From: Candidatus Woesearchaeota archaeon
GTDB lineage: Archaea; Nanobdellota; Nanobdellia; Pacearchaeales; GW2011-AR1
NCBI GenBank assembly: GCA_964494915.1
Contig: CAZBTP010000001.1
Coordinates: 6,792 to 70,791 of the forward strand
DNA length: 64,000 nucleotides
Reading direction: 5' to 3'
The notes below the pieces were generated by a model that saw only the letters and a program-made list of their open reading frames with translations, searched no databases and was not told where the DNA came from. The number at the start of each line of letters is the position of its first letter. Positions within the stretch are counted from its first letter, which is position 1. The position numbers were made by a program, and so were the translations under genes. Positions 25,386 to 59,693 of this stretch are shown here, piece by piece.

Positions 25386-25389
25386 AACA

Positions 25390-30434: not shown

Positions 30435-30959
30435 ATGGGGAAATATAAATTGAGGTTATATAACAAAGACTCTCCTAAGTTGTATAAAAGAGAGGAGACC
30501 AAGTTGAAAAAGATTCTTCCTAAAAATACAAATATAGAACATATTGGTAGTAGTGCTGTTGTTGGGTTAAGAGGAAAGGGTTTGATAGATATTATTATAG
30601 CTGTTCCTAAAAGGAAGATTAGTAAAATAAAGATCATCTTAGAAAAAGGAGAGTATGAGTTTCGACCTAATTCTGGGGATAAAGAAAGATTATTCTTTAG
30701 AAGAGACTATACTTCAAATGGAAAAACGCGAAGAGTTCACTTACATCTTACTCACTATCCTAGCAAAACATGGTTAGGAACACGGGCTGTTAGAGACTAT
30801 CTAAGAACTCATAAAGAAGAAGCTCGAGAATATGAGGAAGTTAAAAGAAAAGCTGTTAAGAAAGCTAAAGGTAATGGTGAGACTTATAGGAAAGTTAAGA
30901 ATAAATATCTTAAGCTACTAACTAAGAAGGCTCTAAAATCACTAAAATTAAAACTCTAA
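30435..30959 (+). CDS. GrpB/UPF0157-family protein (nucleotidyltransferase-like)
   Basis: IEHIGSSAVVGLRGKGLIDIIIAV pattern and Lys-rich tail. Confidence 0.65.
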   Translation: MGKYKLRLYNKDSPKLYKREETKLKKILPKNTNIEHIGSSAVVGLRGKGLIDIIIAVPKRKISKIKIILEKGEYEFRPNSGDKERLFFRRDYTSNGKTRRVHLHLTHYPSKTWLGTRAVRDYLRTHKEEAREYEEVKRKAVKKAKGNGETYRKVKNKYLKLLTKKALKSLKLKL

Positions 30960-31254
30960 TCTATACATTTAGAACCACGCCATTTGGAGATAAGATACTT
31001 AGATACTTTCTCTAAAAAGATATTAAAGGAAAAACCTAACTTCATTATAAGTATAGCTAAGAGCAACAACACAGAGGGTTAGCACCTAAAAAGGCTAACC
31101 CTTTATAGATTATCGCCCTCTATATACTATCAATTACCCTCAGTGCCGCCATCGAAGAGAGTATAAAAACCCAGCAACACACAACAATCAAATATATAAA
31201 GGTAATAGACCTCACAAAAAAGAAAACTGAAAGGAGGCATATAAAAAAAGGTAA

Positions 31255-32334
31255 ATGGTCCTAGACATTGCGAAAGAGGCAATCGCAAGCGCGCAAACAC
31301 ACAGTATAAACTTTGATGAACTCCGTGCAGGAAAAGCAAACATCAAGGTTTTTGGTGTCGGTGGCGCTGGGTGCAATGCAATAACCTGGCTTTTTAACAA
31401 GGGAATCAATGGTGCAACAATCTACGGAGTAAACACAGATGCCCTCCATTTAAGTATTACAAAATCAGATGAGAAAGTTCTCATCGGAAAAGAACTTACA
31501 CGAGGTCTTGGTGCGGGCGGTAAACCAAATGTTGGAAGAGAGGCGGCAAAAGAGTCAATATCAGAACTAAAGAGAGCAACAAGCGGCGCAGACATGGTCT
31601 TTGTCCTTGTAGGTCTCGGAGGTGGTACTGGCACCGGAGCAGCGCCGGTTGTAGCGCAACTCGCCAAAGAATCAGGCGCGGTTGTTATTGCAGTAGCAAC
31701 AATGCCTTTTGATTGTGAAAAAGTACGGCAGGATAAGGCAGAATTTGGTTTACAAGAACTCGTTGAAGTAGTTGACACAGCAATACTCATTGACAACAAT
31801 CGTCTCGTTGATATCGCAGGTAATCTCCCCATGGAACAAGCATTTGCAGTCGCGAATGAATTAGTGAGTACAATGATTAAGGGTATCGTAGAAACGATTA
31901 CGCTTCCATCATTGATCAATCTCGACTATGCAGACGTTGCTGCAATCATGAAAAACGGAGAGGTTGCAGTTATTGGCGTCGGTGAATCAGATACAACATC
32001 ACGAGCCGATGAAGCAGTACGCCAAGCACTGACACAACCACTACTCGATGTTGACTACAGGGGCGCAACAGGCGCATTAATCCACATTACCTGTGGTCCA
32101 GATTTCAAACTCGAAGAATTCTCAAGCGTTGGTGAACTCGTTACAGAAAACATCAGTCCAGAAGCTCAAGTAATTATTGGCGCGCGCATTAATAAAGACT
32201 TTGCAAACCGCGTTCGCGTTATTACCATTATGACAGGAGTAAAATCTCCGTACGTTCTCGGACGAGCAGCATACAAGGAACAAGAACGCGCAACGTCAGA
32301 AATGTCAGAGCTCGGTATAGAAGTCTTTAGATAA
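31255..32334 (+). CDS. ftsZ: cell division GTPase FtsZ
   Basis: Tubulin signature GGGTGTGAAP, VFGVGGAGCNA nucleotide-binding loop, T7-loop region. Confidence 0.9.
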   Translation: MVLDIAKEAIASAQTHSINFDELRAGKANIKVFGVGGAGCNAITWLFNKGINGATIYGVNTDALHLSITKSDEKVLIGKELTRGLGAGGKPNVGREAAKESISELKRATSGADMVFVLVGLGGGTGTGAAPVVAQLAKESGAVVIAVATMPFDCEKVRQDKAEFGLQELVEVVDTAILIDNNRLVDIAGNLPMEQAFAVANELVSTMIKGIVETITLPSLINLDYADVAAIMKNGEVAVIGVGESDTTSRADEAVRQALTQPLLDVDYRGATGALIHITCGPDFKLEEFSSVGELVTENISPEAQVIIGARINKDFANRVRVITIMTGVKSPYVLGRAAYKEQERATSEMSELGIEVFR

Positions 32335-32367
32335 GTTTTATTTTTTTCTTCTTTTTCTTTTTACCAA

Positions 32368-32949
32368 TTAACTTGGTGGGCGATAATCCTCTCTATCCTC
32401 TTCAAATATAGTAGGTCTCCTTTTATTCCCCCAACGTTCCCAATGAACAGTCGCTTCAAGCGATCGCTTTTTCCGCACAGCACTTCCTTTCTGCACTAAC
32501 TCATACCCAACAGGAATAATCGCTTCAACCTGCATGTGCTGAGGGATCTTTAACTTCTCCTTAACAAGTTCATCAGGATATGCTCCTACCCAACATCCGC
32601 TTAATCCAGAATGGACGAGTGAGAGTAAGATCGTCTGAATCACAGCCCCTGCCTGCTGTCGTGAGTACACGCGGCCTCGTTCTCCATACATATTCTCCAA
32701 ATGAATATCATCAGAAACAACGATAATAAACAACGACGCTTCAGCAGTCCATAGCTGCTCAGCCAATGAAGCCAAGGTACGTATCATTTCTTTATCTTCA
32801 ACAATAATAAATCGTATATTTGTATGATTCCCTGCAAACGGTCCCTGCAATGCAGCATCAATCGCATACAGCACGTCCTTCCAACTAGCACGTTTTTTCA
32901 AAAAACTCCGAACAGATGTCCGTTGTTTCACGACCTCATTAAAATCCAT
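32368..32949 (-). CDS. nitroreductase-family protein
   Basis: KQRTSVRSF N-terminal motif and overall 190-aa nitroreductase-like pattern. Confidence 0.7.
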   Translation of the reverse strand: MDFNEVVKQRTSVRSFLKKRASWKDVLYAIDAALQGPFAGNHTNIRFIIVEDKEMIRTLASLAEQLWTAEASLFIIVVSDDIHLENMYGERGRVYSRQQAGAVIQTILLSLVHSGLSGCWVGAYPDELVKEKLKIPQHMQVEAIIPVGYELVQKGSAVRKKRSLEATVHWERWGNKRRPTIFEEDREDYRPPS

Positions 32950-32982
32950 AGAGTAAAAAAGAAACCATTCTATAAAAACCTT

Positions 32983-34083
32983 TCACCGCAGCCTCATCTC
33001 CCCTCCTCCAACAACGCGCTCGCCATCATAGATCACAAGCGCCTGTCCTTCAGCAATTCCCCAAACAGGTTTCTTAAAGTGAAATACGAATCTTCCCTTT
33101 CTCCTCGTCAAGCTCCCGTAATGCAACACACCACGATGTCGTATTCTCCCCCGTAATCTTCGCGAGTATATTTGAGCATTATGAGCAACAAACAGAAATT
33201 TCCTTACAAAGACCTTCTTTCCCTTCAGCAACGAATCTCCCTCAGGTACAACCACGAGGACATTTCCTCTTTTTTTTGCTGCAACATATAGCCTTCTCTT
33301 CCTCCATAGCTCGGCTTTTTCATTAAAAACAAATTCCTTCCCTTCACCAACGCGCTCCCCAATAGTAAAAAATACACTCCCGGGATGTGTTCCAATAATC
33401 TCCCCTCGAGGCGACATAACATCCCCCTTCTTTTTTTTAATTCTTTTCTTCAAAAAAGCCTTCATATCCATCTTCCCAATAAAACAAATCCCCCGCGTTC
33501 CTTGCTTATTCCAATTTGGAAATCCGTTCTTCCGTGCGAGAGCTCGAATCCCATCCTTCCGATAACCACCGAGAGGGAAAAGCGTATGCCTTAAATCTTT
33601 TTGTGTAAGTTCATACAAAAAATACGACTGATCCTTGTCATTATCAGCCCCGCGCAATAACTCGTATTCCTTCGTTCCATGCTGAACTCTCGCGTAATGT
33701 CCTGTCGCGATAAAATCTGCCCCAAGCGATCGCGCCTTCTTCCATAAAAATGGAAACTTAATAACGCGATTGCACAAAATATCAGGATTCGGCGTTAAAC
33801 CACTCGCATAGTCTTTGTACATACAATCGATTACAGAACGTTTATATTCCCTTTCAGAATCAATCATCACAATTGGAATGTTCAGCATACCAGCAACGCG
33901 CTGAGCCATTCTCCATTCCTCCCTCCAATGACACTCCCCACTCGTAGGATCCTTACGATCAGAATAATTCTTCATAAACGCACCAATAACCTTATATCCC
34001 TTCTTCTTCAACAACAACGCAGCCACGCTTGAATCAACGCCTCCTGACATCCCAACAAGGACCGTTTCTCTATGAACACGCAT
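32983..34083 (-). CDS. mnmA: tRNA-specific 2-thiouridylase MnmA
   Basis: PP-loop VGMSGGVDSSVAA, catalytic Cys context, 366 aa. Confidence 0.9.
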   Translation of the reverse strand: MRVHRETVLVGMSGGVDSSVAALLLKKKGYKVIGAFMKNYSDRKDPTSGECHWREEWRMAQRVAGMLNIPIVMIDSEREYKRSVIDCMYKDYASGLTPNPDILCNRVIKFPFLWKKARSLGADFIATGHYARVQHGTKEYELLRGADNDKDQSYFLYELTQKDLRHTLFPLGGYRKDGIRALARKNGFPNWNKQGTRGICFIGKMDMKAFLKKRIKKKKGDVMSPRGEIIGTHPGSVFFTIGERVGEGKEFVFNEKAELWRKRRLYVAAKKRGNVLVVVPEGDSLLKGKKVFVRKFLFVAHNAQIYSRRLRGRIRHRGVLHYGSLTRRKGRFVFHFKKPVWGIAEGQALVIYDGERVVGGGEMRLR

Positions 34084-34133
34084 ACAACAACCAACGAAAA
34101 AAGATTTATAACTATTACTGTCTTTCCTTTCCT

Positions 34134-34358
34134 ATGGCGGAAAAAGTGTCGACAGGCGGCGTAAAGTCATTCACGTACACGAAAGAGCACAATCCTCGAC
34201 TTACTTCAGAACAAAAACAAGAAATTAGAGAGGCCTACCAACACTATGATGAGCGAAAAGCACGTCAAAAAAAAGAGAAGAGAACGAGAATAATCATCAT
34301 AAGTATCATTATCCTTATCCTCATCATACTCGCAGTACTATTCCTCAGAAAATCCTAA
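34134..34358 (+). CDS. hypothetical small protein with C-terminal TM helix
   Basis: MAEKVSTGG... ending IIIISIIILILIILAVLFL. Track ORF 34029-34358 overlaps the mnmA start, so the internal ATG at 34134 is used. Confidence 0.25.
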   Translation: MAEKVSTGGVKSFTYTKEHNPRLTSEQKQEIREAYQHYDERKARQKKEKRTRIIIISIIILILIILAVLFLRKS

Positions 34359-34360
34359 CA

Positions 34361-34999
34361 TCAAACACGCCGAAATCGCTGCGATGCAAGGATATAACCA
34401 ATAAACGCGATATTTAACAAAACACCGACCATAGCCTCAAGAGCAGCAATAAACTTATTAATCCCTAAGGGGGTAAAGTCGCCATAACCAACTGTCGTAA
34501 AAGTAATTGCACTATAATAAAGCGAATCAGGAAAAGATATCACTGTCGGTTTACTAAGATACAAAAATTGCGTATCGCTCGCATAATACGCCCCCGCGAA
34601 TAAAAGAATAATCATCGTCACAAAAAACCCATAACTCAGAATAAACACTGCAACCCTCTTTGATTTCAAAAGATGATCAATCCATGGAATCAATCCAACT
34701 GAATATATCATGACAAAAACGATAACAATAATAATAATCGAATTGATCTGCTCTCGTAAGATCAGATTGATAATCCCAAAAATAACAATAAGCGCGAGTG
34801 CCGTATAATCCTCAAAAATACTTCCACCAATACGACGCATATCATAGATACGTAATCCAACAAAAACTAAGATCAAGAGAGTGGTAAACACAGGTGGCAC
34901 ATGCAAGTACTGTTCAGAAAACAATGACCCCAACAAAAGAGCAGCAATAACAACCGCTAATATGAACTCAGCCCGCTGCAGAGATACCCTCTTTTTCAT
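34361..34999 (-). CDS. potassium channel family protein
   Basis: K+ selectivity filter TTVGYGDFTP after multiple TM helices. Start moved to MKKRVSL because the track ORF (to 35101) runs into tRNA-Asn. Confidence 0.7.
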   Translation of the reverse strand: MKKRVSLQRAEFILAVVIAALLLGSLFSEQYLHVPPVFTTLLILVFVGLRIYDMRRIGGSIFEDYTALALIVIFGIINLILREQINSIIIIVIVFVMIYSVGLIPWIDHLLKSKRVAVFILSYGFFVTMIILLFAGAYYASDTQFLYLSKPTVISFPDSLYYSAITFTTVGYGDFTPLGINKFIAALEAMVGVLLNIAFIGYILASQRFRRV

Positions 35000-35042
35000 A
35001 TCCAATAAACGTACAGGAGCTTTATAAGGCTTGTCGAGAAAA

Positions 35043-35128
35043 CGTCCCGGAGAGGACTCGAACCTCTGACCCCATGGTGTCTGTACGACGATAACAGCCA
35101 TGTGCTCTGCCAGCTGAGCTACCGGGAC
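35043..35128 (-). tRNA. tRNA-Asn (anticodon GUU) with 13-nt intron after position 37
   Basis: Cloverleaf GUCCCGG-UA-GCUCAGCUGGCAGAGC-A-CAUGG[CUGUUA+UCGUCGUACAGAC+A]CCAUG-GGGUC-AGAGGUUCGAGUCCUCU-CCGGGAC-G. No CCA encoded. Confidence 0.75.
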
Positions 35129-35387
35129 TCATCCCTTCCAACAAAAAACGTTATTTAACCTTTGTGGCCAAAAAGTCCATATCCTGAATCGCAATTAGAT
35201 TGTGGATGAATTGGCCTGGAAGGATATATAAATATGGATATTGTAGTTGTAATAATAAAAATAAATATTTTAGGCAAGGGACTTGCCTTGTGGAGACGAT
35301 GTCAGACTTTCCTTTGGGAAATCAGTTGTCTATAAAGCAAGAAGCCATAACCTCAACAGAAAATGTTAGGTTATGATAGTTCACACA

Positions 35388-35882
35388 TTACTTCAGATAC
35401 GCTTCTTTTCGAATCCGATTCATTCGCTCAAGATATTTATACATATTCGCCTGTTTCGATCCTCTGATAATATGGGTAATAGCAGTAACTGCATGTTCAA
35501 TCGACTCGCTATCTCCAATAATCCCAACATCATAATCCCGAATAATCAAGAAACATCCGGAAATTTTCTCAATCGTCCGTTTTGTTTTTCCCTTTGTTCC
35601 CACGATGCGAGAAAGAACATCTCGCAAATTCTTCCGCCGGGTATAATCACGAATACGTATCTTTCGGAAATGATAGTCTTCCTCTATCAGCAAGAGCGCT
35701 TTCTGAACAGAGAACCCAAACGCAATCGCTTCAAAGACCAATGCTGCCCCATACTCATCTAACGGCAATCCTTCAAAGCGAACCTGCCCTCCGTTTACAG
35801 CAATACGAACATTCAATCTCTTCTCAAGCTCTTGCTTTTTCTTCTTTACACGCCCGCTATTGCGCATATACACGAGTTCCAT
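35388..35882 (-). CDS. KH-domain RNA-binding protein (Dim2/Pno1/Krr1-like)
   Basis: GxxG KH loop IVGTKGKTKRTIEKISG and a second KH-like segment. Confidence 0.5.
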   Translation of the reverse strand: MELVYMRNSGRVKKKKQELEKRLNVRIAVNGGQVRFEGLPLDEYGAALVFEAIAFGFSVQKALLLIEEDYHFRKIRIRDYTRRKNLRDVLSRIVGTKGKTKRTIEKISGCFLIIRDYDVGIIGDSESIEHAVTAITHIIRGSKQANMYKYLERMNRIRKEAYLK

Positions 35883-35925
35883 TAATTGAGAATGTAAATC
35901 TCCTTTTTAAGCTATCGGCTGAGTA

Positions 35926-36231
35926 TTATAACAATACCAACGCAAAGGGAATTCCCTGTACGTATCCTATATTTCCTCGAACAATAATTCCTACCTCAAG
36001 CGCGATCTGTACTGAATTTTTTCCAACAATATTAAACGTCGCGTCTTCCTGAGACTCGTGTTTCAGAATAGTTACAAGCTGTTCAGCGAATACTTCCTCG
36101 CCCTTATAAAAACCCTCACGTACATCAAGCTGTCGTTTTCCTTCTTCAAATTTTTTTCCGAGTAAATCAGCATCGCATACCGCCACAAGATGCCGATATT
36201 GCGTATATATCTTTAAAAAGAACCAGTGCTC
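35926..36231 (-). CDS. DUF424-family archaeal protein
   Basis: LKIYTQYRHLVAVCDADLLGKKFEEGKRQLDVREGFYKGEEV matches the DUF424 consensus (ICDEELLGK...EGFY.GE). Start taken at MEHWFF, shorter than track ORF 35926-36303. Confidence 0.5.
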   Translation of the reverse strand, partial: EHWFFLKIYTQYRHLVAVCDADLLGKKFEEGKRQLDVREGFYKGEEVFAEQLVTILKHESQEDATFNIVGKNSVQIALEVGIIVRGNIGYVQGIPFALVLL

Positions 36232-36288
36232 CATAGTGACATTTAAAAGCACTGCTTTAAATAAGTTACGCTCACCAGAAGAAAAGAG

Positions 36289-36816
36289 ATGGCACAACGA
36301 CATCGGTTACGTCATACAATCGTATTTACTATTTTGTTATTAGTTCTAATGCTTCTTATCTTGTCATATAGACATCTTTCGTACGCTGAACAAAGATCGC
36401 ACCCCCGAGAGAGTCGTGTTTTAAAAAATCCTGTCGAAGACCTAAGTGACGAAGAAGCAATTGCGCAGTTTAATGAAGACTTTGTTTTGTACCTATTATA
36501 CACAATAAAAGCACAGAGATTGCACAATCCTCCACTAAGCAAGAGTACGCCGAAAATAGAGGTTTTTGTTGACGAGGACGTGTATCGTGCAGAAGTTATC
36601 GATAACGTAATTTACGTTGGGCGCGGGCGTTTTTCTGCGAAAGATATTGTTATTACAACAAGTGCTCGAGAAGCAGTTCAGATGTTGCGTGATCAATCAC
36701 ATATTGTCGAATCGTTTGCACAAGGAAATTCGCATCTTGAAATCATCGAGGACAAAGTAACATTATTTGCAAAAGGATACCGAGAGATTCATAATGAAGT
36801 AACGAAAAAGACGTGA
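36289..36816 (+). CDS. hypothetical membrane-anchored protein
   Basis: N-terminal TM TIVFTILLLVLMLLILSY followed by a soluble domain. Confidence 0.4.
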   Translation: MAQRHRLRHTIVFTILLLVLMLLILSYRHLSYAEQRSHPRESRVLKNPVEDLSDEEAIAQFNEDFVLYLLYTIKAQRLHNPPLSKSTPKIEVFVDEDVYRAEVIDNVIYVGRGRFSAKDIVITTSAREAVQMLRDQSHIVESFAQGNSHLEIIEDKVTLFAKGYREIHNEVTKKT

Positions 36817-44501: not shown

Positions 44502-44885
44502 ATGACTATGAAAGACTTGTTTGATGCAAAGATCGTGTGTAAGCAATGTGACGTACAGATGAAACCAATCTACGTCGAAAAGTCTGGTTTTCGTCTGCGA
44601 GCAATTCACTGTCCACACTGCAATGATAAGATTATTCATCCCGGAGATTTACACGATTTAGAGCAGTATAATGGCTTGCGGCAGAAAACGTTCGATGTGA
44701 AATTACGTATGGTAGGAAACAGCCATGCAATCAGTATCCCGAAAGAGATTGTTGATTTTATTAATGAAACACACCAGCGCATGCATAAACAGATGAGCGA
44801 TATGGTACGTTTAGGATTTGAGGATTTTGGAAAGTTGAGCATTACATTTTTTAATGATGCTCAAAAGAGGGGGCGCGAATGGTAA
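44502..44885 (+). CDS. zinc-ribbon plus AbrB/SpoVT-like (swapped-hairpin) small protein, translationally coupled to cdc48
   Basis: CKQCD...CPHCN ribbon. [22 protein letters not shown] resembles AbrB/MazE. Stop overlaps the CDC48 start (ATGG at 44879). Confidence 0.5.
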
Positions 44886-47800
44886 AGAGCACAGGTATTA
44901 AACTAAAAGTCGTTGAGTCATTGCAAGACGATGTATACAAAGGAGTTGCACGAATCGATCCGCAGATCATGCGATCGATGGGTTTGATGAGGGGCGATAT
45001 TATCACAATTCAAGGCGGGCGAGAAACGCAAGCGATTGTCGATCGTGCATACCCTGCTGATGTCGGCGAGAGTATTATTCGTATCGACGGTCTGATCAGA
45101 AAGAATGCGCGTATTGGCGTCGGTGAGCACGTTATCGTCAAGAAAGCAACGAGCAGACCAGCAACAAAGGTCATTATTGCACCTGCACAGCAAGGGATTA
45201 TGGTACAAGGCGATCCTGAAATGTTAAAGCAGGGTTTGTTAGGACGCCCAGTTGCAAAGGGAGATATCATCTCATTAGGAGGAGTGCATCGCCGGAGAGA
45301 TAGTATAGGTGATGGTTTTCCTGACTTCTTCGGCGATCTACATGATCTGTTCGGAGGGCATCTTGCATTTCCTGGCTTTCAACACCTACGATTTATCGTC
45401 GTTTCAACAATACCAAATCAGCAGTGTTTTATCAATGAAGATAGCGAGATCGTACTAAATCCAAAGGCCGTTGATATCTCTGAAGATGCAATGCCGGGTA
45501 TTACATACGAAGAGATTGGCGGTTTAAGGGACGAGATTAAAAAAATACGTGAAATGGTCGAACTTCCGTTGAAACATCCTGAGATCTTTGAACGTCTTGG
45601 CATTGACGCGCCAAAGGGAGTTTTATTACATGGTCCACCAGGAACTGGAAAGACACTCCTCGCAAAGGCTGTGGCGAATGAGTCCGATGCTAATTTCATT
45701 TTGTTAAATGGTCCTGAGGTCATGAGTAAATTTTACGGGGAATCTGAGAAAAAGATTAGAGATATCTTCGAAGAAGCAGAGAAGCATGCACCGAGCATTA
45801 TCTTTTTCGACGAGATTGATGCGATCGCGCCGAAGCGAGAGGATGTACAAGGAGAGGTTGAACGAAGGGTGGTAAGTCAGTTATTATCAATGATGGATGG
45901 TTTAAAGTCAAGAGGAAAGGTTGTTGTTATTGGAGCGACAAATAGGGTTAATTCTGTTGATCCTGCGTTACGAAGACCTGGAAGATTTGACCGAGAGATT
46001 GAGATCTCTGTCCCCGGAAAGGAGGCGCGTTTAGATATACTAAAGATTCATACGCGAAATATGCCATTAACAAAAAATGTCAATCTTGATATGCTTGCAG
46101 GAAAGACGCACGGTTTTGTTGGCGCTGATTTGTCCGCGTTGACAAAAGAGGCTGCGATGAATGTTCTACGAAAGATGCTACCTGAGCTTAAGATGGACAG
46201 TGAAGAACCAATACCAAAGGAGGTTTTGGAAAAAGCTATTGTTCGCGTCGAGGACTTTGAAGATGCATTAAAGGTTGTACGCCCGAGTGCAATGAGAGAA
46301 GTTTTTGTTGAAACACCAAATGTTTCCTGGGAAGACGTTGGTGGCCTAGAAAAAACAAAGCAAGAATTGAAGGAAGCCGTTGAATGGCCGATTACGAATC
46401 CTGACGGCTTTAAACGACTCGGTATCAGAGCACCACGGGGAATCTTGTTGTATGGACCTCCAGGAACAGGGAAGACGCTATTAGCGAAGGCAGTTGCGAA
46501 GGAATCTGAGGCAAACTTTATTCATATTAAAGGACCTTCGCTATTAAGTATGTGGGTCGGAAAGTCGCTTCCCTATGAGGAAGAGGTTATTGTAATGAAA
46601 AATGGGCTTGTTGATAGAAAACCCATTGGAAGGCTTGTTGAAAACAAAGAGAAGGCTGATGTTATAAGTTTTGATAAACATAAAAAAGTAAAGTTCTCTC
46701 CGATAAAGGATTTTATACTCCATAATTCGGATGGGTCTCTTGTTGAGATCACTACTGCAAGTGGTAGGAAGATTCGTGTAACGAAAGATCATTCATTGTT
46801 TAGTTTGTATGGTACTGAGATTATTGATCTGCCAACGACTCATCTTAAAGAGAATGAGAGCTATATTGCGATTCCGCGGAAACTTCCTCTTCCTGAGATC
46901 GAACCGGAGCCGATTAATCTCTTGCATGTTCTTGAGGAAGAAATTTCTGTTTCTTTTAATAGCTATATTGGGGAAGCGGTTAAGGTGTTAGGAAAAGAAC
47001 GATCTGCCGAAGTACTTGAGATACCTCTAAAGTATATGTATGATGTGCTTAGCAAAGAGTTGGCGATCTCCGCAAAAGGATTTCTAGCCCTCATGAAGGA
47101 AGCAGGAATAGCGTTCGACTATAAGCAGACTAGTATCCATGTACGAAATAGCACCCACTCAATGCAAGCTTCTTTGATTATTACTCCAGAATTGTGCGAA
47201 CTTCTTGGACTATGGGTTGCTGAAGGCGATTACAATAAAAAAAGCGTTCGTATTCATGCGATGAATAAGGAGATACGAATGAGAGTGAGAGAACTTTTAG
47301 ATGTCTGTCGTTTACCCTTCTCGACTAATAAAGAAACCTTTAGTATCAACTCGTTATTATTCCAGCGTATCATGAAGGAAGTTTTCAAGTTATATGATAA
47401 AGCCCATAATAAGCGAATACCTGCTTTGGTGTTTACTTTACCACGGCGATATATTCATTCTTTTTTGAGAGGTTATTACAGTGGAGATGGTTCTATTTAT
47501 TCTACGAATGGAAGAAGTTCTGCTATTGAAGCTGCGACAAAAAGTGAGAAACTAGCGAATGATTTACTTTATCTATTGTTAGGGCTTGGTATCGTTGGAA
47601 GGGTTTATGAAAAGAGCATTGATACAGAACGCTATTATCGAGTTATGTTTATGGGAGTCGACTATCTCACCGTATTTAGCGAGATAGGCTTTATTGATAC
47701 CAAGAGAAATAATAGGATTCTGTTGTACATTAAAAGTAAGAAATGGAAAAGAAGTGATAATATTCCTATTACAGGAGATTTGTACACGCTTCTTCCAAAA

Positions 47801-48619
47801 TCACGAAGATCGAATGAAAGTATTGAACGAGAAGAACTGAGAAAGATTGGGAACCAGTTGAATAATGAAAACATATTAAAATTGGTTGATGCCGATGTTT
47901 ATTTTGATAAGGTCGTTGAAATTACCAATCTCGACTATTCTCTCCCTGTATACGATCTAACAATAAATCCAACTGAGAATTTTGTTGCAGGATTTGGTGG
48001 TGTGTTCGTGCATAATAGCGAAGAAGGCGTTCGAAAGGTTTTTGAGCGCGCGCGGCAGGTCGCACCCTGTGTTGTGTTCTTTGACGAGATTGATGCACTT
48101 GCAGGAAAACGAGGGTTAGAAGTCGGGACAAAGGTAACCGAACGTGTTTTGAATCAGCTCTTAGCAGAGATTGACGGTCTTGAAGACCTAAAAGACGTAA
48201 CTATTATTGGTGCTACGAATCGGCCAGATATGTTAGATCCGGCTATCTTACGACCAGGAAGGTTCGATCGAGTGATCTTGGTTGATATACCCGATGAAAC
48301 AAGTCGTCAGAGAATTTTAGAGATCCATACCAAAAAGACACCGTTGGGAGACGACGTTGATATACGCGAGCTTGTAAAGTTAACCGATGGTTTTGTTGGT
48401 GCTGATTTAGAAGCGTTAGTACGTGAAGCTGCGCTGAATGCATTACGGAAAGATAACAGCGCGAGTATGGTGATGCTTGATGATTTCGACGAAGCGTTCA
48501 AGAGGGTTAAACCCTCAGTATCGCGCGACACTGCGCAGCGATACAAAAAGATCGAAGAGTATTATTTAAAGCGAGCAAAAGCAGGATTAGAAAGTTCCAG
48601 CCCTATGTATGCAGGATAA
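44879..48619 (+). CDS. cdc48: CDC48/VCP-like AAA+ ATPase containing a 484-aa LAGLIDADG intein in the D2 domain
   Basis: N-domain, two Walker A GPPGTGKT, two DEID Walker B, SRH. Extein about 762 aa once 46565-48016 is removed. Confidence 0.9.
46565..48016 (+). mobile_element. intein with LAGLIDADG homing-endonuclease domain inserted between WVGK and SEEGVRK of CDC48 D2
   Basis: Begins with Ser, ends VHN followed by Ser. Motifs [11 protein letters not shown] and [13 protein letters not shown]. Flanks reconstitute the CDC48 consensus LLSxWVGESE. Confidence 0.85.
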
Positions 48620-48711
48620 TCGTATTTTGAAACCGAAAAAAAATCGCTCAAAGAACTCCTTTCCAATTGGCATGGGGCGTCGGTTTCGATCGTGATTTGA
48701 AGCTTGGACCC

Positions 48712-48742
48712 TCTCACGCTAGGTCCCTCTCATCTCTTTTTC
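48712..48742. repeat. 31-bp direct repeat (copy 1) flanking the protease gene 48897-51782
   Basis: tctcacgctaggtccctctcatctctttttc is identical at 48712-48742 and 51777-51807. Confidence 0.85.
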
Positions 48743-48896
48743 TTTTTTAGCATGTTTTAATTAACGGGCTGGACCGCGGGGAATTATTCGACTGCACGTA
48801 CCGTCAATGCAAATCTCTTCTTCTATGCATTCCTGAAGTTGTTCTTCTCGAACACCGCAGGTGTCAACCGAGTAAACATCCGCATTGAAACATATT

Positions 48897-51782
48897 TTAG
48901 AACCGACAACTGTCTCCACGACATGAACGTCCACCACAGCCCGTATATAACGACGAGGGATTCCCACAGGAGTCAAACCAGTAAACATTCCCATTATAGC
49001 AGCTTTTGTATGCAAAATCCGAGCAACATCCTGAAAAATCGAATAAGCAATTGGAATTGCAACCTAATAGTCCACGGTCCCAACAAAAGTTTCCACAGGT
49101 TTTTCCGTTCAATTTGTTTCCTTCGCATTGTTCACCGGGTTCTATTAGGCCGTTTCCACAAATGGCCTGCACCCGGTCTATTGAAGAGGGATTTTCCAAG
49201 ACTACAAGAGCAACTGGCAGGCTTCCACTCCTCCGGAATTGGTTTATCGACTTCAGATAAAGGTTTTCCTTAATTGCGGGTTTGATTTGGGCATTTTGGA
49301 AATTGATTACAGTTTGGGGGTTAACGGTCTGGGAACCAATAACGATATTAGAGGTATCCAACAATTCAAATACCGCACTCGGCCGGTTGTCTGAATTGGA
49401 GTTTATTGAAACCAGTTTCATTTTCATGGTTTGGCCTTCAAAAATCCCTTTGCCTGTCAAGAAGATCATTGATCCCACGTCAATGGTTTTTGTTTCAAAT
49501 GTTCTGTCGCTGGGTTGTTCGATGCAGTAAATTCTTTGTCGGGTTGAACAATCGGATAATGATCTTTTGGTTCTTTCCCATTCAATCGTATTAGTCCCGT
49601 CAATTATCCCAGAAGCGCCTTTTACGGTGGCGCTATGTTGGTCAAAAGTCCAGTCCTGGCAAGTGAGAAGAGCACCCAAAGTCGGAGTCAATCGGTTGCT
49701 TGGTCTCAAAGGTTTTTTTCCAGTCCAAACAAAAGAGTTGACCAACGTTTTTGTTTCATCCAAATTAATGGGGTGTCGAATAGTTCCATCGGTAAGGTCA
49801 TTCCAATCATTTGCGATCCGTGTCCCGTCGAGTAACTGGTAGGGAAAGGGTGTTTCAGCGATTCCATTTCCTGGTTCCATAGCGGAAGTGCCCAGATAGG
49901 CTTTCCATCTTCCTCCCAAGTTGGCGTTGTCCGCGAGTATTTGGCATTGAAAGTCTGCCCCGCGTGTTCCACCGAGGTTTCCTGAAAATTGAGTGCTCGA
50001 AACAAACACTCGAAAGCGATTGCAATCCAATTCGCAGTTCGCAAGGTTTTCGTAGGGTTCGCAGACATTATTGCCACAAGATAAAGGAGAATAGGGTGGA
50101 AAATCAATTTTAACTTGGGTTTCTTCTAAGTTCGTCTTTAAATTGGTGATTCCAACATCGTTAAATGGTGCAATAACTGTTTGACCAGTTGGGATAATCG
50201 GCTTCAGCCAATCCCACTTATCATTTGTTCGCGGATTAGAATGGGGAGTCATATCGAGTAAAATAGGAGACGAGAAATCGTAATCGCTTAACTTTTTATG
50301 AGCCATCGGGCCGTTTATATCGTACTTTTCGCCACCATATATAGCGTCTTTGCCCAGGGGCTGTCGGAATTCAAGATAAAAAGTATAATCCTGCCTTGCT
50401 CCGCACGGAATTTTTAAGACTTTGGTGTTCAGACCCGCTCGTTCAAGCGGAGTTAACGCAATAATTGCATCCTGAGTCACATCCACTATGTTCCCTGAAT
50501 TAAACCAACCCAGTGTTTCTTTTTGGATGCTATTAAAATGTCCGTCGAGGCCGCCCATAATATCAAAATAATCACCATACTCGAAAACAGAACATGCATT
50601 CGGACTGTGAGAAAAAGAGACATCTCCGCATTCCAAACTGCTGGAGTGAGGCAGCCCCAAATTGTGCCCAAATTCATGAATAAATACGTTATAAAAAACA
50701 TCATCGAATCGATATTCTGCTATCAACAGAACCGAAGTTAAAGTTGAACTGCCATCTTGCGTATTAATAAAAGACGATCCGAGAGCAAATCCCAGACCAC
50801 ATGACACTCCGGTGGAAACAATGACTGCGATTCGTTGATAATCCGGATAGAAAATATCAGCATCGGCTACCTCCAGTGCCCTCTGAAGTAGTCCGTGAGA
50901 AGAACACACTTCTACGTCTCCTGAAGTTTCAATGTGGATGATATCCGAGGGTGTATCTCCTCCTTGGTACCATCCAAACACATTGCCAGTAAGCCATGTT
51001 TTACCGTAAGAAACTTCTTTGTAATAAGAATCAACCGAATCCGCATTGGTTAAACCGAATATGCGATCGTGAATTTCTTCTGGAGATACAGTGGGGGTAG
51101 GGCCATCCGAAAAAGCAACTAAAATTACGGCGATTTTTTGTTCTCCCGTCGTCGGAATTTGCGTCCTATCAACCTCAGCACCTGCAATGCCGAGTACTTG
51201 GTCCGCGTTCGCGAGGATAACCTGATTGTCAAGCGCGTACCCACTTAAAACCACTTCTGACCCTGAGTTGGTTTTAGGTTCCCCCATTGCAAAAAATAGT
51301 TCGGATCTCCCAGTTTTTTCTTTCAGAAAGTACCGCTGTTTATACTTTTTGTTTTCGAAGTCGTCCTCGTGCCAGACTTCAAATGTTCCTTGTTTTCGAA
51401 TGGACTGTTCAATATATAGTTTTATCCCTGGAGGCAACCGGTTTCGGGTTTCTCCCGGAAGTGCGAGTTCTAAAAAAGCCTTTGGGTCTTTTTTGATTAA
51501 TTGTAGCATTTTTTGTTTGCGTTGTTTGGCGAAGGTCACTCGTTTGGAGAGTGGAAGAGCATTATTCAGGAGTTGTGTATCGAACTTTTTGATTTGTTCC
51601 TTGTCGCTTACAGCGCTGGCAAAATCCGTTGCAGTGTTTTTTGGTCGAGAAGATGCAATCCCGGAATTTTCTAATATTAAATTTGGACCAAAAACCGAGC
51701 TTTGGATAACTGCTAGTATGCCCACAGCGGAGATAATAAAAACGACGAGTATCCAATTTAGCTGGTGCTTGAACGATCTCAC
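48897..51782 (-). CDS. secreted zinc metalloprotease, M6/InhA-like, with Cys-rich C-terminal region. GTG start.
   Basis: N-terminal TM/signal. EQKIAVILVAF...DSYYKEVSYGKTWLTGNVFGWY...HEFGHNLGLPH (HExxHxxGxxH). C-terminal Cys-rich modules. The start codon GTG lies inside the 31-bp repeat. Confidence 0.7.
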   Translation of the reverse strand: MRSFKHQLNWILVVFIISAVGILAVIQSSVFGPNLILENSGIASSRPKNTATDFASAVSDKEQIKKFDTQLLNNALPLSKRVTFAKQRKQKMLQLIKKDPKAFLELALPGETRNRLPPGIKLYIEQSIRKQGTFEVWHEDDFENKKYKQRYFLKEKTGRSELFFAMGEPKTNSGSEVVLSGYALDNQVILANADQVLGIAGAEVDRTQIPTTGEQKIAVILVAFSDGPTPTVSPEEIHDRIFGLTNADSVDSYYKEVSYGKTWLTGNVFGWYQGGDTPSDIIHIETSGDVEVCSSHGLLQRALEVADADIFYPDYQRIAVIVSTGVSCGLGFALGSSFINTQDGSSTLTSVLLIAEYRFDDVFYNVFIHEFGHNLGLPHSSSLECGDVSFSHSPNACSVFEYGDYFDIMGGLDGHFNSIQKETLGWFNSGNIVDVTQDAIIALTPLERAGLNTKVLKIPCGARQDYTFYLEFRQPLGKDAIYGGEKYDINGPMAHKKLSDYDFSSPILLDMTPHSNPRTNDKWDWLKPIIPTGQTVIAPFNDVGITNLKTNLEETQVKIDFPPYSPLSCGNNVCEPYENLANCELDCNRFRVFVSSTQFSGNLGGTRGADFQCQILADNANLGGRWKAYLGTSAMEPGNGIAETPFPYQLLDGTRIANDWNDLTDGTIRHPINLDETKTLVNSFVWTGKKPLRPSNRLTPTLGALLTCQDWTFDQHSATVKGASGIIDGTNTIEWERTKRSLSDCSTRQRIYCIEQPSDRTFETKTIDVGSMIFLTGKGIFEGQTMKMKLVSINSNSDNRPSAVFELLDTSNIVIGSQTVNPQTVINFQNAQIKPAIKENLYLKSINQFRRSGSLPVALVVLENPSSIDRVQAICGNGLIEPGEQCEGNKLNGKTCGNFCWDRGLLGCNSNCLFDFSGCCSDFAYKSCYNGNVYWFDSCGNPSSLYTGCGGRSCRGDSCRF

Positions 51783-51807
51783 GCTAGGTCCCTCTCATCT
51801 CTTTTTC
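51777..51807. repeat. 31-bp direct repeat (copy 2), overlapping the protease GTG start
   Basis: Identical to 48712-48742. Confidence 0.85.
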
Positions 51808-51986
51808 CTTTTTTTGCAATTGTAATATCCACTATTAATCTTCAATCGATTATTTAAGTTAATCATTGTTTTTATTCCTTTCGTTGCTTGATACTATTTA
51901 AAGGATCCTTACCAAGATATACATATACATCAGATAAGAAAAGAAACAAAGCACGCTCCTCCTAACAAGACCAAAAAGTTTCAAGT

Positions 51987-53378
51987 TTATGGAATAGTTT
52001 CCGCCATAAAAAAAACTTTATTTGACACAACACGAGCGTGTTTGTTATTATAAACAAATGAAGCACTCGCAGAAGGCAGTTCAAATCTACCAATAACATT
52101 AAGTGTTGTGTAGATTATATACGAATAAACACGTACCTCCCCTGCATTAAGTTTTTCTATGTTCCACGTAAGTCTCTTTGTGTTCGGATCAACATGCTCG
52201 TCCGATGTTCTGCCAAACTGTTCATAGAGTTTTGTCGCCGTTGGTAGCTGGTCTATTATTCTTACATGCTCAAGATATTTTTGTGCTTTTGCAGTGAGTG
52301 TAACCTTAAGTGCGAAATGGCTACTTTTTGTTTTTATGAATGATACCTTCTTATGAAGCGTCACTGGTGTGCGGATATAGATCCTTACAGCGAGCGTTCC
52401 AAGAATAATTATTGCAAGAATAATTGTCGGAAGAGTATAATTTGAGGTAGTTGATACAATTATTGAGTCGCTTGGGTTCAGGAATGATCGCCAGCGATAG
52501 GTAACATATAGTCCTTTCCGTTCTATTTCATGAGGCGTTGGTTCTTCACGAGTAAGAAAACGAGAGAGAATATCCTTTTTTATTTCTACAGTTTCTGCAA
52601 TCGGTGTATTTCCTTCGTTTGTTTTTTTAACAGTCGTTCTTCGTATGATAATCCCTTCAGACGAACGCTCAACAATAACGCCTTCCCGCTCTCTATAATC
52701 AAGTGTTATATCGAATTCTACTTTTTTGTTCTCGAGAATAATTCCAACACTCGCCGAATAAAACCCTGCTGCAATCTGTCGCGTTCGCTCTCGATCAATT
52801 GGAAGCGAAATATCTTTTATTTCATAAGGACCCAGTGTTAGTTTTTCTTCCTGGTCAAAGAATCGTGAGGTAAGTTGTACGCTGAGATTCTCTATAGGTA
52901 TACCTTCTTTGTTCTTTACGCGAACAGTTATTGTTGTATCCATCGGATTTATTGGCGCCGCGGTTATCTCAAAGATTTCCTGGATAGGAACTATCTTCAT
53001 AAGGAGTGTGTCTTTTGTAATTCCAGTGTTCTGCCCTCGTAGTTGATATTCGAATTGGTAGAAGCCGCTAGATTTTCGCACCTCTTTATTTGGATTTGCA
53101 GTTACTTCCAGTGTTGTCTTCCCTGATGGAAGATCAAACGTTCCCCTCGGGGTCATTGAGACTCCTACGAAAGAATAGATCTCAAAGGTGTCTTGCTTCC
53201 CGAGGTTATTAATCGTAAATTCAAAGATCGCTGGATTGTTGAGCTCCGCAATTACAATGCTATGCTTCTCCTTTTTTTCTATCTCTATTCCCTGGGCACT
53301 TGTAAGTGTTAGGAGAAGCATAAGTGAGAAGAGTGTACAAGAGAGAAAAAGTAACACGAACAACGACGCTCTTTTCAT
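51987..53378 (-). CDS. type-I membrane-anchored surface protein
   Basis: Signal peptide MKRASLFVLLFLSCTLFSL..., TM LPTIILAIIILGTLAV at about aa 305, and a cytoplasmic tail of about 140 aa. Confidence 0.5.
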   Translation of the reverse strand: MKRASLFVLLFLSCTLFSLMLLLTLTSAQGIEIEKKEKHSIVIAELNNPAIFEFTINNLGKQDTFEIYSFVGVSMTPRGTFDLPSGKTTLEVTANPNKEVRKSSGFYQFEYQLRGQNTGITKDTLLMKIVPIQEIFEITAAPINPMDTTITVRVKNKEGIPIENLSVQLTSRFFDQEEKLTLGPYEIKDISLPIDRERTRQIAAGFYSASVGIILENKKVEFDITLDYREREGVIVERSSEGIIIRRTTVKKTNEGNTPIAETVEIKKDILSRFLTREEPTPHEIERKGLYVTYRWRSFLNPSDSIIVSTTSNYTLPTIILAIIILGTLAVRIYIRTPVTLHKKVSFIKTKSSHFALKVTLTAKAQKYLEHVRIIDQLPTATKLYEQFGRTSDEHVDPNTKRLTWNIEKLNAGEVRVYSYIIYTTLNVIGRFELPSASASFVYNNKHARVVSNKVFFMAETIP

Positions 53379-56861: not shown

Positions 56862-59693
56862 ATGGGAATAAAGAAAGTAAGTGAGAACGTCTGGGAAATC
56901 GAAAAAGAAGGAAGGATGCTAGTTCCAGGGATTGTGTTTGCCTCAGATAGCTTAATGGCTTCAATTCAAAAAGATAAGACACTCGAACAAGTGAAAAACG
57001 TTGCACAGCTTCCAGGAATTGTTGGATATTCTCTCGCGATGCCAGATGCACATCAAGGATATGGAATGGCTGTCGGAGGTGTAGCCGCGTTTGATTCCGA
57101 GCACGGAATTATTTCTCCCGGAGCAGTAGGTTATGACGTGAACTGCTTAACGGGCGATACAGAAATCCTTACAGAATTCGGAAATTCGATAAAAATTGAA
57201 GAATTTGAAAAATACAAATCAGAAATAGAAATTGAACAAAATAACCAAAAAATTAAAAAAATAATATTCTCGCGCAATCTGCCAACCTTAAACCTTGATA
57301 CAAAAAAAATAGAAGATAAATCTATTAATTTATTTATGTCAAGGCACGCGGAAGATGTATGTGAGATAACTTTAGCATCCGGCTTAAAAATTAAAGCTAC
57401 AAGCGATCATCCTTTTTTAACAAAACAAGGAATGAAAAAATTATCTGAATTAAAAGATAACACAGAACTAGCAATAAATACTTTTGAAGGAGTTGAATCC
57501 AGCGAAGTGATAAATGAAAAGGAAGCAATCCTTGCAAAGTTAATTGGTTATATGTTTGGGGATGGTTCCTTCTACGAAACAAAAGGAGAATTACGTGCGG
57601 TAGCTTATGGGCAAAAAGAAGACCTTGAAAAAATAAAGGAAGACTTATCAAGATTAGAAATAAATTCAAGTCTCTTTTGCAGAATAAGGGAGCATAAAAT
57701 ACAGACTCGTTATGGCGAAAAAAGTTTTAATTCTACAAACTGGGAGTTACATATTTATAATCAAGCTTTTCTTAAGATTTTAAAAGAAAGAGGTCTCACG
57801 TTAGGAAATAAAACAAGGCAGAAAATCAGGGTTCCCGAATGGATAAAAAAGTCAAGTAAATTAACAAAAAGATTATTTTTAGCTGGTTTTTTCGGCGCAG
57901 AAATGTCATCTCCTAAAACACTCTCTAGAACATGCTTTTGTAGCTCAACTATTAATCAGAATAAAATAACCTTACTAAAAAAAAACTGTAGAGATTTTCT
58001 TATAGACATCTCTCTGCTTTTAGAAGAATTTGGGATTAAAAATTACAAAATATCAGAGATGGAGGATTATATCAATAAATACAAAGAAAAAACATCAAGA
58101 TTAAGGCTAGCTTTATACGGAGAGGATACAATGTTAAAACTATGGAGAACAATAGGTTTTGAGTATAATAAAAAAAGACAGGACTTGGCAAACATAGCCT
58201 CTTTGTATATCTTACTAAAAAAGCAGGAAAATCAACGGAGGATTGAACTGGCTAGAAAAATAAAACAATACAGGAAAAATGGACTTACAATAGCAGAAGT
58301 AAAGGGACTCTTCCATAAAGAGATTAACGAAAGATTTATAGAAAGGCACTATTACGAAAATGCAAAACAAAGAATCAATCTTGATTTTATTACTTTTAAT
58401 GAGTTCAGAGATATAAAACTCAAAGAAATAAGAGAAATTGGGACTCTTCTTGACAAAATAATTTCTATTAAAAAGATAGAAGGCATACATAAAGTTTATG
58501 ATTTTAACATTCAGGATAATCATAATTTTATTGCAAATGGCTTTATAGTTTCGAATTGTGGAGTACGATTGCTTGCGACGAATATAACGAAAAAAGAATT
58601 TTTACCGAAACGAGGAATAGTATTAAATGAACTCTATAAGAATGTGCCGTCCGGCATCGGAAGAGGAACAGGAATAAAACTTTCAGATGCTGAATGTAAC
58701 GCGGTCTTAGAAAAGGGATTAAAATGGGCACGAGAAAAAGGATATGCGTCTGAGGAAGATATTGAGCACACAGAAGATAAGGGCTGTATTCAAGGAGCGA
58801 ATGCAGCAAAAGTTTCGCAAAGAGCAAAAGCAAGAGGCAGGGATCAGCTCGGGAGCATTGGGGCAGGAAATCATTTCCTTGAAGTACAAGAGATCGTGGA
58901 GATTTTTGATGATCGTGTTGCAAAAACGTTTGGATTAAACGAAGTCAAACAGATCGTAGTAATGATCCATACCGGCTCACGAGGGTTAGGACACCAAACT
59001 GCATCAGATTATATTATGAAAATGGAAAAAGAGTATGGATATAAACACCTTCCAGATCGCGAGTTGGCATATGCGCCAATTACTTCTGCTTTGGGAAAAG
59101 ACTATAGAGAAGCAATGGCGAGTGCTGCTAATTTCGCATTTACAAATCGGCAGATGATCACGCATCTTATAAGAAAAAGTTTTGAGAAGTATTTTCCAAA
59201 CGCGAAACTAAGCGTTGTGTATGATATCGCACATAATATTGCGAAGCTTGAGGAGTTCGAAGTCGAGAACGAGAAAAAAATATTGTGCGTACACCGAAAA
59301 GGTGCAACTCGATCATTTGGACCAGGAAGAAAAGAAATTCCGAGCGATTATAGAGAGGTAGGCTGTCCGATTTTTATTCCAGGAAGTATGGGAACATTTT
59401 CGTATGTCCTCGTCGGAACAAAGAAAGCACGTGAGATTTCGTTTGCGTCAACAGCCCATGGTGCTGGACGAATGCTATCAAGGACGTACGCAAAACAACA
59501 TATTTCTGCTGAGCATTTAAAACAAGGGCTAGCAGAAAGAGATATTATAATTAAAGCTGGATCGCTAAAAGGCATGATTGAAGAAGCGCCAGAGGCGTAT
59601 AAGGATGTGAGCGAGGTTGTTCGTGTTTCACATGCGCTCGGTATTGGAAGCGTAGTTGCAAAGCTGAAACCATTAGCCGTAATGAAAGGGTGA
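56862..59693 (+). CDS. rtcB: RNA-splicing ligase RtcB containing a 471-aa LAGLIDADG intein
   Basis: PDAHQGYG, GYDVN-CGVRL split by the intein, GAGNHF, HTGSRGLGHQ. Extein 472 aa. Confidence 0.9.
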   Translation: MGIKKVSENVWEIEKEGRMLVPGIVFASDSLMASIQKDKTLEQVKNVAQLPGIVGYSLAMPDAHQGYGMAVGGVAAFDSEHGIISPGAVGYDVNCLTGDTEILTEFGNSIKIEEFEKYKSEIEIEQNNQKIKKIIFSRNLPTLNLDTKKIEDKSINLFMSRHAEDVCEITLASGLKIKATSDHPFLTKQGMKKLSELKDNTELAINTFEGVESSEVINEKEAILAKLIGYMFGDGSFYETKGELRAVAYGQKEDLEKIKEDLSRLEINSSLFCRIREHKIQTRYGEKSFNSTNWELHIYNQAFLKILKERGLTLGNKTRQKIRVPEWIKKSSKLTKRLFLAGFFGAEMSSPKTLSRTCFCSSTINQNKITLLKKNCRDFLIDISLLLEEFGIKNYKISEMEDYINKYKEKTSRLRLALYGEDTMLKLWRTIGFEYNKKRQDLANIASLYILLKKQENQRRIELARKIKQYRKNGLTIAEVKGLFHKEINERFIERHYYENAKQRINLDFITFNEFRDIKLKEIREIGTLLDKIISIKKIEGIHKVYDFNIQDNHNFIANGFIVSNCGVRLLATNITKKEFLPKRGIVLNELYKNVPSGIGRGTGIKLSDAECNAVLEKGLKWAREKGYASEEDIEHTEDKGCIQGANAAKVSQRAKARGRDQLGSIGAGNHFLEVQEIVEIFDDRVAKTFGLNEVKQIVVMIHTGSRGLGHQTASDYIMKMEKEYGYKHLPDRELAYAPITSALGKDYREAMASAANFAFTNRQMITHLIRKSFEKYFPNAKLSVVYDIAHNIAKLEEFEVENEKKILCVHRKGATRSFGPGRKEIPSDYREVGCPIFIPGSMGTFSYVLVGTKKAREISFASTAHGAGRMLSRTYAKQHISAEHLKQGLAERDIIIKAGSLKGMIEEAPEAYKDVSEVVRVSHALGIGSVVAKLKPLAVMKG
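57144..58556 (+). mobile_element. intein with LAGLIDADG homing endonuclease in RtcB at the GYDVN/CGVRL site
   Basis: Starts CLTGDTEIL (block A), LIGYMFGDGSF and FLAGFFGAEMS LAGLIDADG motifs, ends IVSN followed by Cys. Terminal Asn is preceded by Ser rather than His. Confidence 0.85.

Follow-up and report, generated by a model that had tools for sequence, protein, structure and literature searches.

Both the chemistry of protein splicing and the homing of inteins through double-strand-break repair belong to established intein biology. Inteins favor conserved functional motifs of their host proteins and cluster in the functional motifs of ATPases (PMC4760082). They also exist in the CDC48 proteins of Anaeramoeba, where they weakly resemble inteins that occupy orthologous sites in prokaryotes (PMC10710043). 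Here, we describe an archaeal counterpart within a stretch of 64,000 nucleotides (nt) from a Candidatus Woesearchaeota archaeon, a DPANN archaeon of Pacearchaeota/Woesearchaeota type (contig CAZBTP010000001.1, positions 6,792 to 70,791), hereafter called the window, to which all coordinates refer unless a contig is named. The 484-amino acid (aa) insert in its single-copy cdc48/VAT gene is very probably a canonical class-1 intein that carries a monomeric, two-motif LAGLIDADG homing endonuclease, lies in frame with its host and is predicted to splice.

Insertion point and splicing domain of the cdc48 intein

The cdc48 precursor is encoded on the forward strand, as are all of its parts described below, by an open reading frame (ORF) of 1246 aa plus stop (44879..48619; ATG start, stop codon at 48617..48619). 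Pfam identifies CDC48_N, CDC48_2, two AAA modules and two AAA lids, the D2 AAA module being split by the intein. The precursor thus starts with an N domain, made up of a double-psi barrel and a beta-clam, and each of the two AAA modules behind it has a Walker A (GPPGTGKT, at aa 252 and at aa 526) and a Walker B motif (FFDEID, at aa 309 and at aa 1067). The NCBIfam model TIGR01243 (CDC48 family AAA ATPase) matches with 1003.8 bits (cut-off 802.65) in two stretches, the break falling at aa 563. The N-extein (aa 1–562, 44879..46564) comprises the N domain, the complete D1 and D2 as far as pore loop 1, and the C-extein (aa 1047–1246, 48017..48616) begins with the +1 Ser (AGC) and continues through the D2 Walker B FFDEID and the lid to the C-terminal SPMYAG. 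Between them, the intein runs from Ser1 to Asn484 (precursor aa 563–1046, 46565..48016), and its 1452 nt are free of stops and frameshifts. An initial annotation, made from the sequence alone, had placed a 484-aa LAGLIDADG intein in the D2 domain of this gene, and both the gene and the intein coordinates proved exact. The same holds for the residues it named at the junctions, a Ser at the start, His-Asn at the end and a Ser following: in the translation of 46505..48076, LLSMWVGK stands upstream of Ser1 (Ser563 of the precursor, codon TCG at 46565), and GGVFVHN ends the intein ahead of the first C-extein residue (Ser1047, codon AGC at 48017).

The N-terminal half of the Hint splicing domain (intein aa 1–104, 46565..46876; TIGR01445 and structure model) is composed entirely of beta strands, opens with the block A Ser1 and contains the block B motif VTKDH (aa 72–76, 46778..46792). 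Its C-terminal part (aa 444–484, 47894..48016; TIGR01443) contains the block F motif VYDLT, which includes Asp464, and the block G motif VFVHN. Both NCBIfam models, intein_Nterm (E 7.5e-12) and intein_Cterm (E 6.5e-4), exceed their cut-offs, and Pfam Intein_splicing (PF14890) covers aa 571–1046 of the precursor (E 1.7e-25). In a family alignment of the window intein with 12 relatives at 34–44% identity, the splicing residues S1, T73, H76, D464, H483 and N484 are invariant in all 13 members, and G143 and L151 are conserved. An AlphaFold2 model of the intein made from this alignment reaches a mean predicted local distance difference test score (pLDDT) of 91.5 and a predicted template modeling score of 0.91. 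Among solved structures, the best sequence match is PI-PkoII (2cw7, E 7.5e-26), with TFIIB mini-inteins, VMA inteins, PI-PfuI and DnaE/DnaB inteins ranking lower. Foldseek likewise ranks PI-PkoII first for the model (E 5e-30, TMq 0.77), together with the Tli and Pho VMA inteins, PI-PfuI and PI-SceI; free-standing LAGLIDADG enzymes (I-Tsp061I, I-OnuI) and mini-inteins (5o9i, 6frg) match the respective halves.

Deletion of 46565..48016 leaves an ORF of 2289 nt for a protein of 762 aa, in which the ligated junction peptide is predicted to read SMWVGKSEEGVR. This product aligns with VAT of Thermoplasma acidophilum (5g4f, E 3e-233) gap-free across the junction and shows no indel relative to the ortholog described below, in agreement with the earlier proposal that removal of the insert restores the D2 segment. 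The position between Walker A and Walker B of D2, as first annotated, can be sharpened. In the alignment to 5g4f, the D2 pore-loop-1 segment MWVGK (aa 558–562, 46550..46564) adjoins the insertion point, which by alignment count falls between VAT Glu544 and Ser545; the Trp-Val of this segment corresponds to VAT Trp541-Val542, which we take to be the D2 pore-loop-1 residues, and the equivalent point in human p97 is presumably Glu554/Ser555. The alignment places the intein in the substrate-translocating loop, two residues past the D2 pore-loop-1 Trp-Val.

A search with the spliced protein retrieved an intein-free homolog of 762 aa (P0176, 93.4% aa identity) on a 52-kb NCBI contig, L085, which is syntenic with the window (MFS transporter, 225-aa ORF, 125-aa ORF, then cdc48). 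Its gene and the spliced window ORF are both 2289 nt long and 86.3% identical at the nt level, with no indel and an identical junction peptide, as the comparison with intein-free homologs recommended in the initial annotation brings out. The two close relatives thus differ cleanly in whether the intein is present. This empty-site ortholog at 93% identity defines the homing site to the base, and the empty junction in L085, a candidate homing substrate, reads ATGTGGGTTGGAAAA up to the insertion point and TCAGAAGAAGGT after it. Since residues 1 and +1 are both Ser, the insertion point in the DNA is ambiguous by one codon: residue 1 of the intein is encoded by TCG and the +1 Ser of the window by AGC, and the empty L085 allele has TCA. 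An AGY codon encodes the +1 Ser at 71 of the 85 occupied sites compared and at 23 of the 47 empty ones, samples that are not phylogenetically independent; a bias of this kind is consistent with the flanking codon having been co-converted along with the intein.

The initial annotation had also drawn attention to a Lys at position –1, where Glu is usual. The Lys is present; however, WVGKSEEG is the sequence of 96 of the 110 empty D2 sites among close homologs, and the residue is therefore native to the host lineage. A deviation caused by the intein, or a footprint left by one, is ruled out on the same count.

Relatives and lineage of the intein

An exhaustive HMMER search covering 1.84 billion representatives retrieved 3997 relatives of the window intein at E ≤1e-3 and 67 at E ≤1e-30. 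The top matches are all AAA ATPases, with the intein located at aromatic-hydrophobic-Gly-x↓Ser-Glu (the arrow marks the insertion point). With each GTDB species represented by a single genome, a scan yielded 372 relatives, the best 80 of which, including 78 complete copies, were used for the counts of sites, stops and sequence context. These 80 derive almost exclusively from DPANN archaea (Woese-, Pace-, Nano-, Aenigm-, Iain- and Micrarchaeota). None of the 78 complete copies contains an internal stop, and all lie at sites of the same aromatic-hydrophobic-Gly-x↓Ser-Glu type: 40 in D2, 31 at the paralogous position of D1 (K[Y/F/W]YG[Q/E]↓SE) and seven in a third AAA ATPase (QW[Y/F]GE↓SEKN). The D2 site is not new and is widely occupied in public genomes. 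To the question whether the window holds a known or a new allele, the answer is accordingly divided: the site is already in use in many DPANN genomes, and the intein itself, at ≤47% identity to any relative found, is a deep lineage with no second member so far. Among the 120 best host homolog clusters, the D2 site is empty in 110 and occupied in five, and such sporadic occupancy (5 of 115 close hosts) fits a mobile element. The four other occupied close hosts carry the intein lineage that is common among the relatives of the window's host, at 42–44% identity to the window copy.

The lineage of the window copy differs from what its host would lead one to expect. Twelve genomes share the exact extein context of the window, SMWVGK↓SEEG[V/M]RK. 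The C-exteins of these hosts are 68–82% identical to that of the window, which is within their own mutual range; their inteins are 58–91% identical among themselves and 41–44% identical to the window intein. In a neighbor-joining tree of 79 family inteins plus outgroups, the inteins of these twelve genomes group with other Woese/Pacearchaeota copies in a single clade. All 100 bootstraps recover this clade as monophyletic without the window intein, and in none is the window intein nested within it. Instead, it branches deep, in loose association with copies from metagenome-assembled genomes (MAGs) of a Bathyarchaeota (L021), an unclassified archaeon (L022) and a Micrarchaeota (L082). These sequence comparisons make the window intein a deep and so far singleton lineage, distinct from that of the relatives of its host. 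The disagreement between host and intein phylogenies, together with the sporadic occupancy, amounts to a distribution like that of a mobile element.

Given the low occupancy and the empty site in the nearest relative, the simplest and most likely reading is that a different, unsampled lineage invaded the same D2 site independently. Several points weigh against it. Monophyly of all D2-site inteins including that of the window is recovered in 62 of 100 bootstraps, and the trees are neighbor-joining reconstructions from proteins of about 40% identity, so that independent invasion and ancient polymorphism are not cleanly separated. Furthermore, the invading lineage has yet to turn up elsewhere. 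No closer relative was found by a word-indexed protein search, although the intein-only search also missed P0175, a protein identical to the window's own precursor, and hence is by itself no proof that close relatives are absent. The best relative in the exhaustive search of representatives is only 44–45% identical, no relative in GTDB genomes exceeds 47%, and contigs of JGI metagenomes contain none closer, viral contigs reaching ≤32%. An old polymorphism that descended vertically and was lost elsewhere is a conceivable alternative to independent invasion.

Several relatives differ from the window in the number or the location of their inteins. In a Woesearchaeota genome (GCA_016185635.1), a single Cdc48 ORF of 2572 aa (contig L001, 382..8100) contains five inteins, seen as five Intein_splicing stretches: D1 holds four, including a pair on either side of the pore-loop segment SKFYGE (six residues), and the fifth is at the D2 pore-loop site. 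Tandem inteins six residues apart also occur on contigs L065, L066 and L084, whereas in two further proteins (P0209 and P0276) the pore-loop site is empty and the only intein is at the upstream one of the two D1 sites. In a MinD/ParA-type ATPase of 798 aa from a metagenome (P0006), the Walker A loop is interrupted by an intein 34–36% identical to that of the window; its junctions are KGGVGK↓S and HN↓ST, and the VGK↓S context resembles the site in the window. More distant relatives reside in FlaI/GspE-like secretion ATPases, as judged by their flanks only (GEVR[G/S]↓[S/T]EA and SIED↓TRE).

The gene calls of three homologs (P0001, P0004 and P0005, on contigs L001, L004 and L002, respectively) begin just upstream of the intein and leave the N-terminal ~560+ aa unannotated. 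Homologs starting in this manner, at M..G(E/K/D)SLPY, raised the possibility of a split gene with trans-splicing, which was rejected because the contigs hold intact ORFs (1218 aa in L002, 2572 aa in L001 and 1291 aa in L004); a further start before the intein, in L003, is explained by a run of Ns in the contig and likewise reflects no split gene. Genes of this kind are frequently cut short at the intein by public pipelines; the window gene should be annotated as one intein-containing cdc48.

The endonuclease and alternative explanations

The two parts of the Hint domain enclose a helical linker, the LAGLIDADG core and an extension. The linker (intein aa 105–205, 46877..47179) consists of four helices with a helix-turn-helix-like stretch in the secondary structure of the model and is presumed to be an extra DNA-contact region. 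The LAGLIDADG core (aa 206–392, 47180..47740) is delimited by Pfam (LAGLIDADG_3, PF14528, E 1.8e-19), the family alignment and Foldseek, and its model displays the pseudo-dimeric alpha-beta-beta-alpha-beta-beta-alpha fold over aa 208–392. Both LAGLIDADG motifs are intact, as the initial annotation had noted: motif 1 reads LGLWVAEGD (aa 214–222, 47204..47230) and includes Glu220, and motif 2 reads LRGYYSGDG (aa 301–309, 47465..47491) and includes Asp308. The extension that leads to the C-terminal splicing strands (aa 393–443, 47741..47893; family alignment and model) is modeled with the lowest confidence of the whole protein (pLDDT ~67–85).

Following the established chemistry, the 1246-aa precursor would be translated as a whole, and Ser563 (intein Ser1) would attack the carbonyl of Lys562 in an N-O acyl shift assisted by Thr73 and His76 of block B. 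The N-extein would then be received by the +1 residue, Ser1047, through transesterification, and cyclization of Asn1046, aided by His1045 and the Asp of block F, would free the 484-aa intein. A final O-N shift would create a normal peptide bond, leaving a Cdc48 of 762 aa whose MWVGKSEEG pore loop is uninterrupted. As long as it is unspliced, the precursor should be inactive and unable to translocate substrate, since its D2 pore loop is occupied by a domain of 55 kDa; for inteins, such a situation is the usual one. The free intein would cleave cdc48 alleles that lack an intein, at the fused junction sequence, and be copied into them by recombinational repair, and homing of this kind would explain the sporadic distribution. 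The corresponding target DNA in D1 and D2 of the window cdc48 matches at only 21 of 48 bases, which gives no sign that the endonuclease cuts the D1 site of its own gene.

Other explanations can be weighed against these observations. The initial annotation itself had named one, a lineage-specific insertion domain without intein blocks A, B, F and G, which would not splice and would be kept in the mature protein. All four blocks were found (Ser1, VTKDH, VYDLT, and VHN followed by Ser), the residues S1, T73, H76, D464, H483 and N484 as well as the +1 Ser being present and invariant. Moreover, the fold is that of a Hint domain with a LAGLIDADG endonuclease, the insert occupies a pore loop that is needed for unfolding, and 110 of 115 close homologs do without it; a retained domain is therefore vanishingly unlikely. 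An artefact of metagenome assembly, in which the intein of another population was joined into the cdc48 contig, would account for a lineage unlike that of the host's relatives and for the lower G+C content of the intein (0.371, compared to 0.445 and 0.458 in the exteins). The G+C excess of the exteins, however, is largely confined to first codon positions and so reflects amino-acid composition, and in a window with a G+C content of 0.403 a value of 0.371 is not foreign; the difference is mild and no argument for an artefact. A chimera would also require two precise breakpoints, and both junctions are in frame and exactly at the canonical site. In addition, the public databases contain an identical 1246-aa protein (P0175), encoded on a contig of 78 kb. 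Misassembly is highly improbable.

A more serious alternative concerns the endonuclease alone, which might be dead or decaying within an intein that still splices, so that the element would be a fixed, vertically inherited relic late in the homing cycle. Activity is not readable from sequence alone, and the singleton lineage without close relatives is in line with such a relic, as is the length of the intein, which in the family alignment is 8–14 aa shorter than its relatives owing to deletions in the extension at aa 393–443. Conversely, the catalytic Glu220 and Asp308 are intact and invariant across the 13 aligned members, as is Lys283 of block D (NKRIP), 69 of the 72 positions conserved at ≥90% in the family are kept (family median 97%), and the reading frame is open over the full 1452 nt. 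The empty site in the nearest host relative, at 93% aa identity, speaks for a gain or loss in the recent past and against long fixation. Between related alleles, the ratio of nonsynonymous to synonymous substitution rates over endonuclease and linker is 0.07–0.18, which indicates purifying selection on the endonuclease of the family; the window copy itself has no close relative from which selection could be gauged or a donor identified. On balance, we regard a dead endonuclease as possible but rather improbable and lean slightly towards one that would still be active. A different proposal would assign the pore-loop-1 inteins of DPANN AAA+ unfoldases the role of a conditional switch, an environmental cue gating splicing and hence the unfoldase activity of Cdc48. 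Switches of this kind have been proposed for some other inteins. In favor of the idea, the pore-loop inteins recur in D1, in D2 and in a third AAA family across DPANN, and inteins are documented to cluster in functional motifs of ATPases (PMC4760082). However, an occupancy of about 4% among close relatives is the pattern of a selfish element and not of a selected regulator, and the intein relies on Ser1 and Ser+1, without a redox-sensitive Cys, which makes a switch unlikely. Were it to hold, the window copy would be a second, independently acquired lineage and evidence for repeated recruitment of the site. In a more modest version, one host group with two deeply divergent intein lineages at one codon would offer a natural system for intein replacement and the homing cycle. 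The defined homing site also makes the endonuclease directly testable, with a possible new meganuclease specificity as the outcome.

Neighboring features and comparison with described inteins

The window contains a second intein in an RtcB tRNA-ligase ORF of 943 aa on the forward strand (56862..59693). This LAGLIDADG intein of 471 aa (57144..58556) has the junctions GYDVN↓CLTGDT and GFIVSN↓CGVRLL, that is, Cys1, a terminal Ser-Asn in place of His-Asn, and a +1 Cys. Immediately upstream of cdc48, an ORF of 127 aa on the same strand (44502..44885) overlaps the cdc48 start codon by 7 nt, an arrangement also present in L085 (125 aa). It encodes two CxxC pairs resembling a zinc ribbon and a stretch reminiscent of AbrB/SpoVT swapped hairpins, yields no Pfam match, and its product may be a translationally coupled partner of Cdc48. 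Directly downstream of cdc48, the interval 48620..51991 contains an ORF of 961 aa on the reverse strand (48897..51782) whose Cys-rich, secreted-looking product has weak matches to M11/reprolysin-type metalloproteases. It is absent from the otherwise syntenic L085 and therefore constitutes a second indel beside the intein-bearing gene.

A larger difference between the two contigs involves about 35 kb of the window (~1613..36412), which are missing at the syntenic position in L085 (1687..1861). The segment encodes MetRS, GatB, an Asp/Asn-tRNA synthetase, GatA, FtsZ, MnmA and an ABC transporter, along with two very large ORFs (3104..6319 and 6663..10361) without a Pfam match. An island was ruled out on account of the housekeeping genes and because no tRNA-derived repeat was found; the difference looks like a rearrangement instead. 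At 35043..35128 on the reverse strand, ARAGORN predicted a tRNA-Stop (anticodon tta), which was considered as a suppressor and rejected: the Rfam alignment shows the loop CU-GUU-A plus an insert of 14 nt, identifying a tRNA-Asn (GUU) with an archaeal intron.

Among structurally characterized inteins, PI-PkoII, the second intein of the Thermococcus kodakarensis DNA polymerase (2cw7), is similar to the window intein in that its Hint domain is split by a two-motif LAGLIDADG endonuclease with extra DNA-contact regions, and both end in His-Asn. The host of PI-PkoII, however, is a family B DNA polymerase, whereas that of the window intein is interrupted in the D2 pore loop of Cdc48, and the two inteins are 22% identical in the structural alignment. 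Much closer in setting are the Cdc48 D2 inteins of other DPANN archaea (for instance on contigs L005, L006 and L012, recorded as "AAA family ATPase"), which share with the window copy the identical insertion point WVG[E/K/D]↓SE, Ser1, the SLPY start, a length class of 482–498 aa and all catalytic residues, but are only 41–47% identical to it. Inteins at D1 pore loop 1 and in the third AAA ATPase belong to the same superfamily (34–38% identity) and take the paralogous position; they differ in residing in another ATPase domain or protein and mostly form separate clades. An intein from the same host protein family is the InBase entry "Mka CDC48" (Methanopyrus kandleri).

In the searchable literature on Cdc48, AAA, DPANN and Woesearchaeota inteins, we found no description of the D2 pore-loop site and, as regards Cdc48 inteins in general, a single passing mention (PMC10710043); Cdc48 is not mentioned in the published work on inteins in ATPase motifs (PMC4760082). 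The CDC48 inteins of Anaeramoeba occupy the same host family as the window intein but mostly are without endonucleases, and the study does not give their site (PMC10710043). The inteins of MCM (CDC21), RFC and DnaB likewise lie in conserved motifs of AAA+/P-loop ATPases, and several sites per gene as well as tandem inteins are known (PMC4760082); those hosts, however, are replication proteins, interrupted in the P-loop, in Walker B or in related motifs, whereas the window intein targets the substrate pore loop of an unfoldase. Both the kind of element and the insertion site are common in related genomes; the find is correct but ordinary, and the understanding of how inteins or Cdc48 work is unchanged by it. 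What the window adds is a deep and so far unique lineage within a large, barely described family of inteins that target the pore loops of AAA+ unfoldases in D1 and D2.

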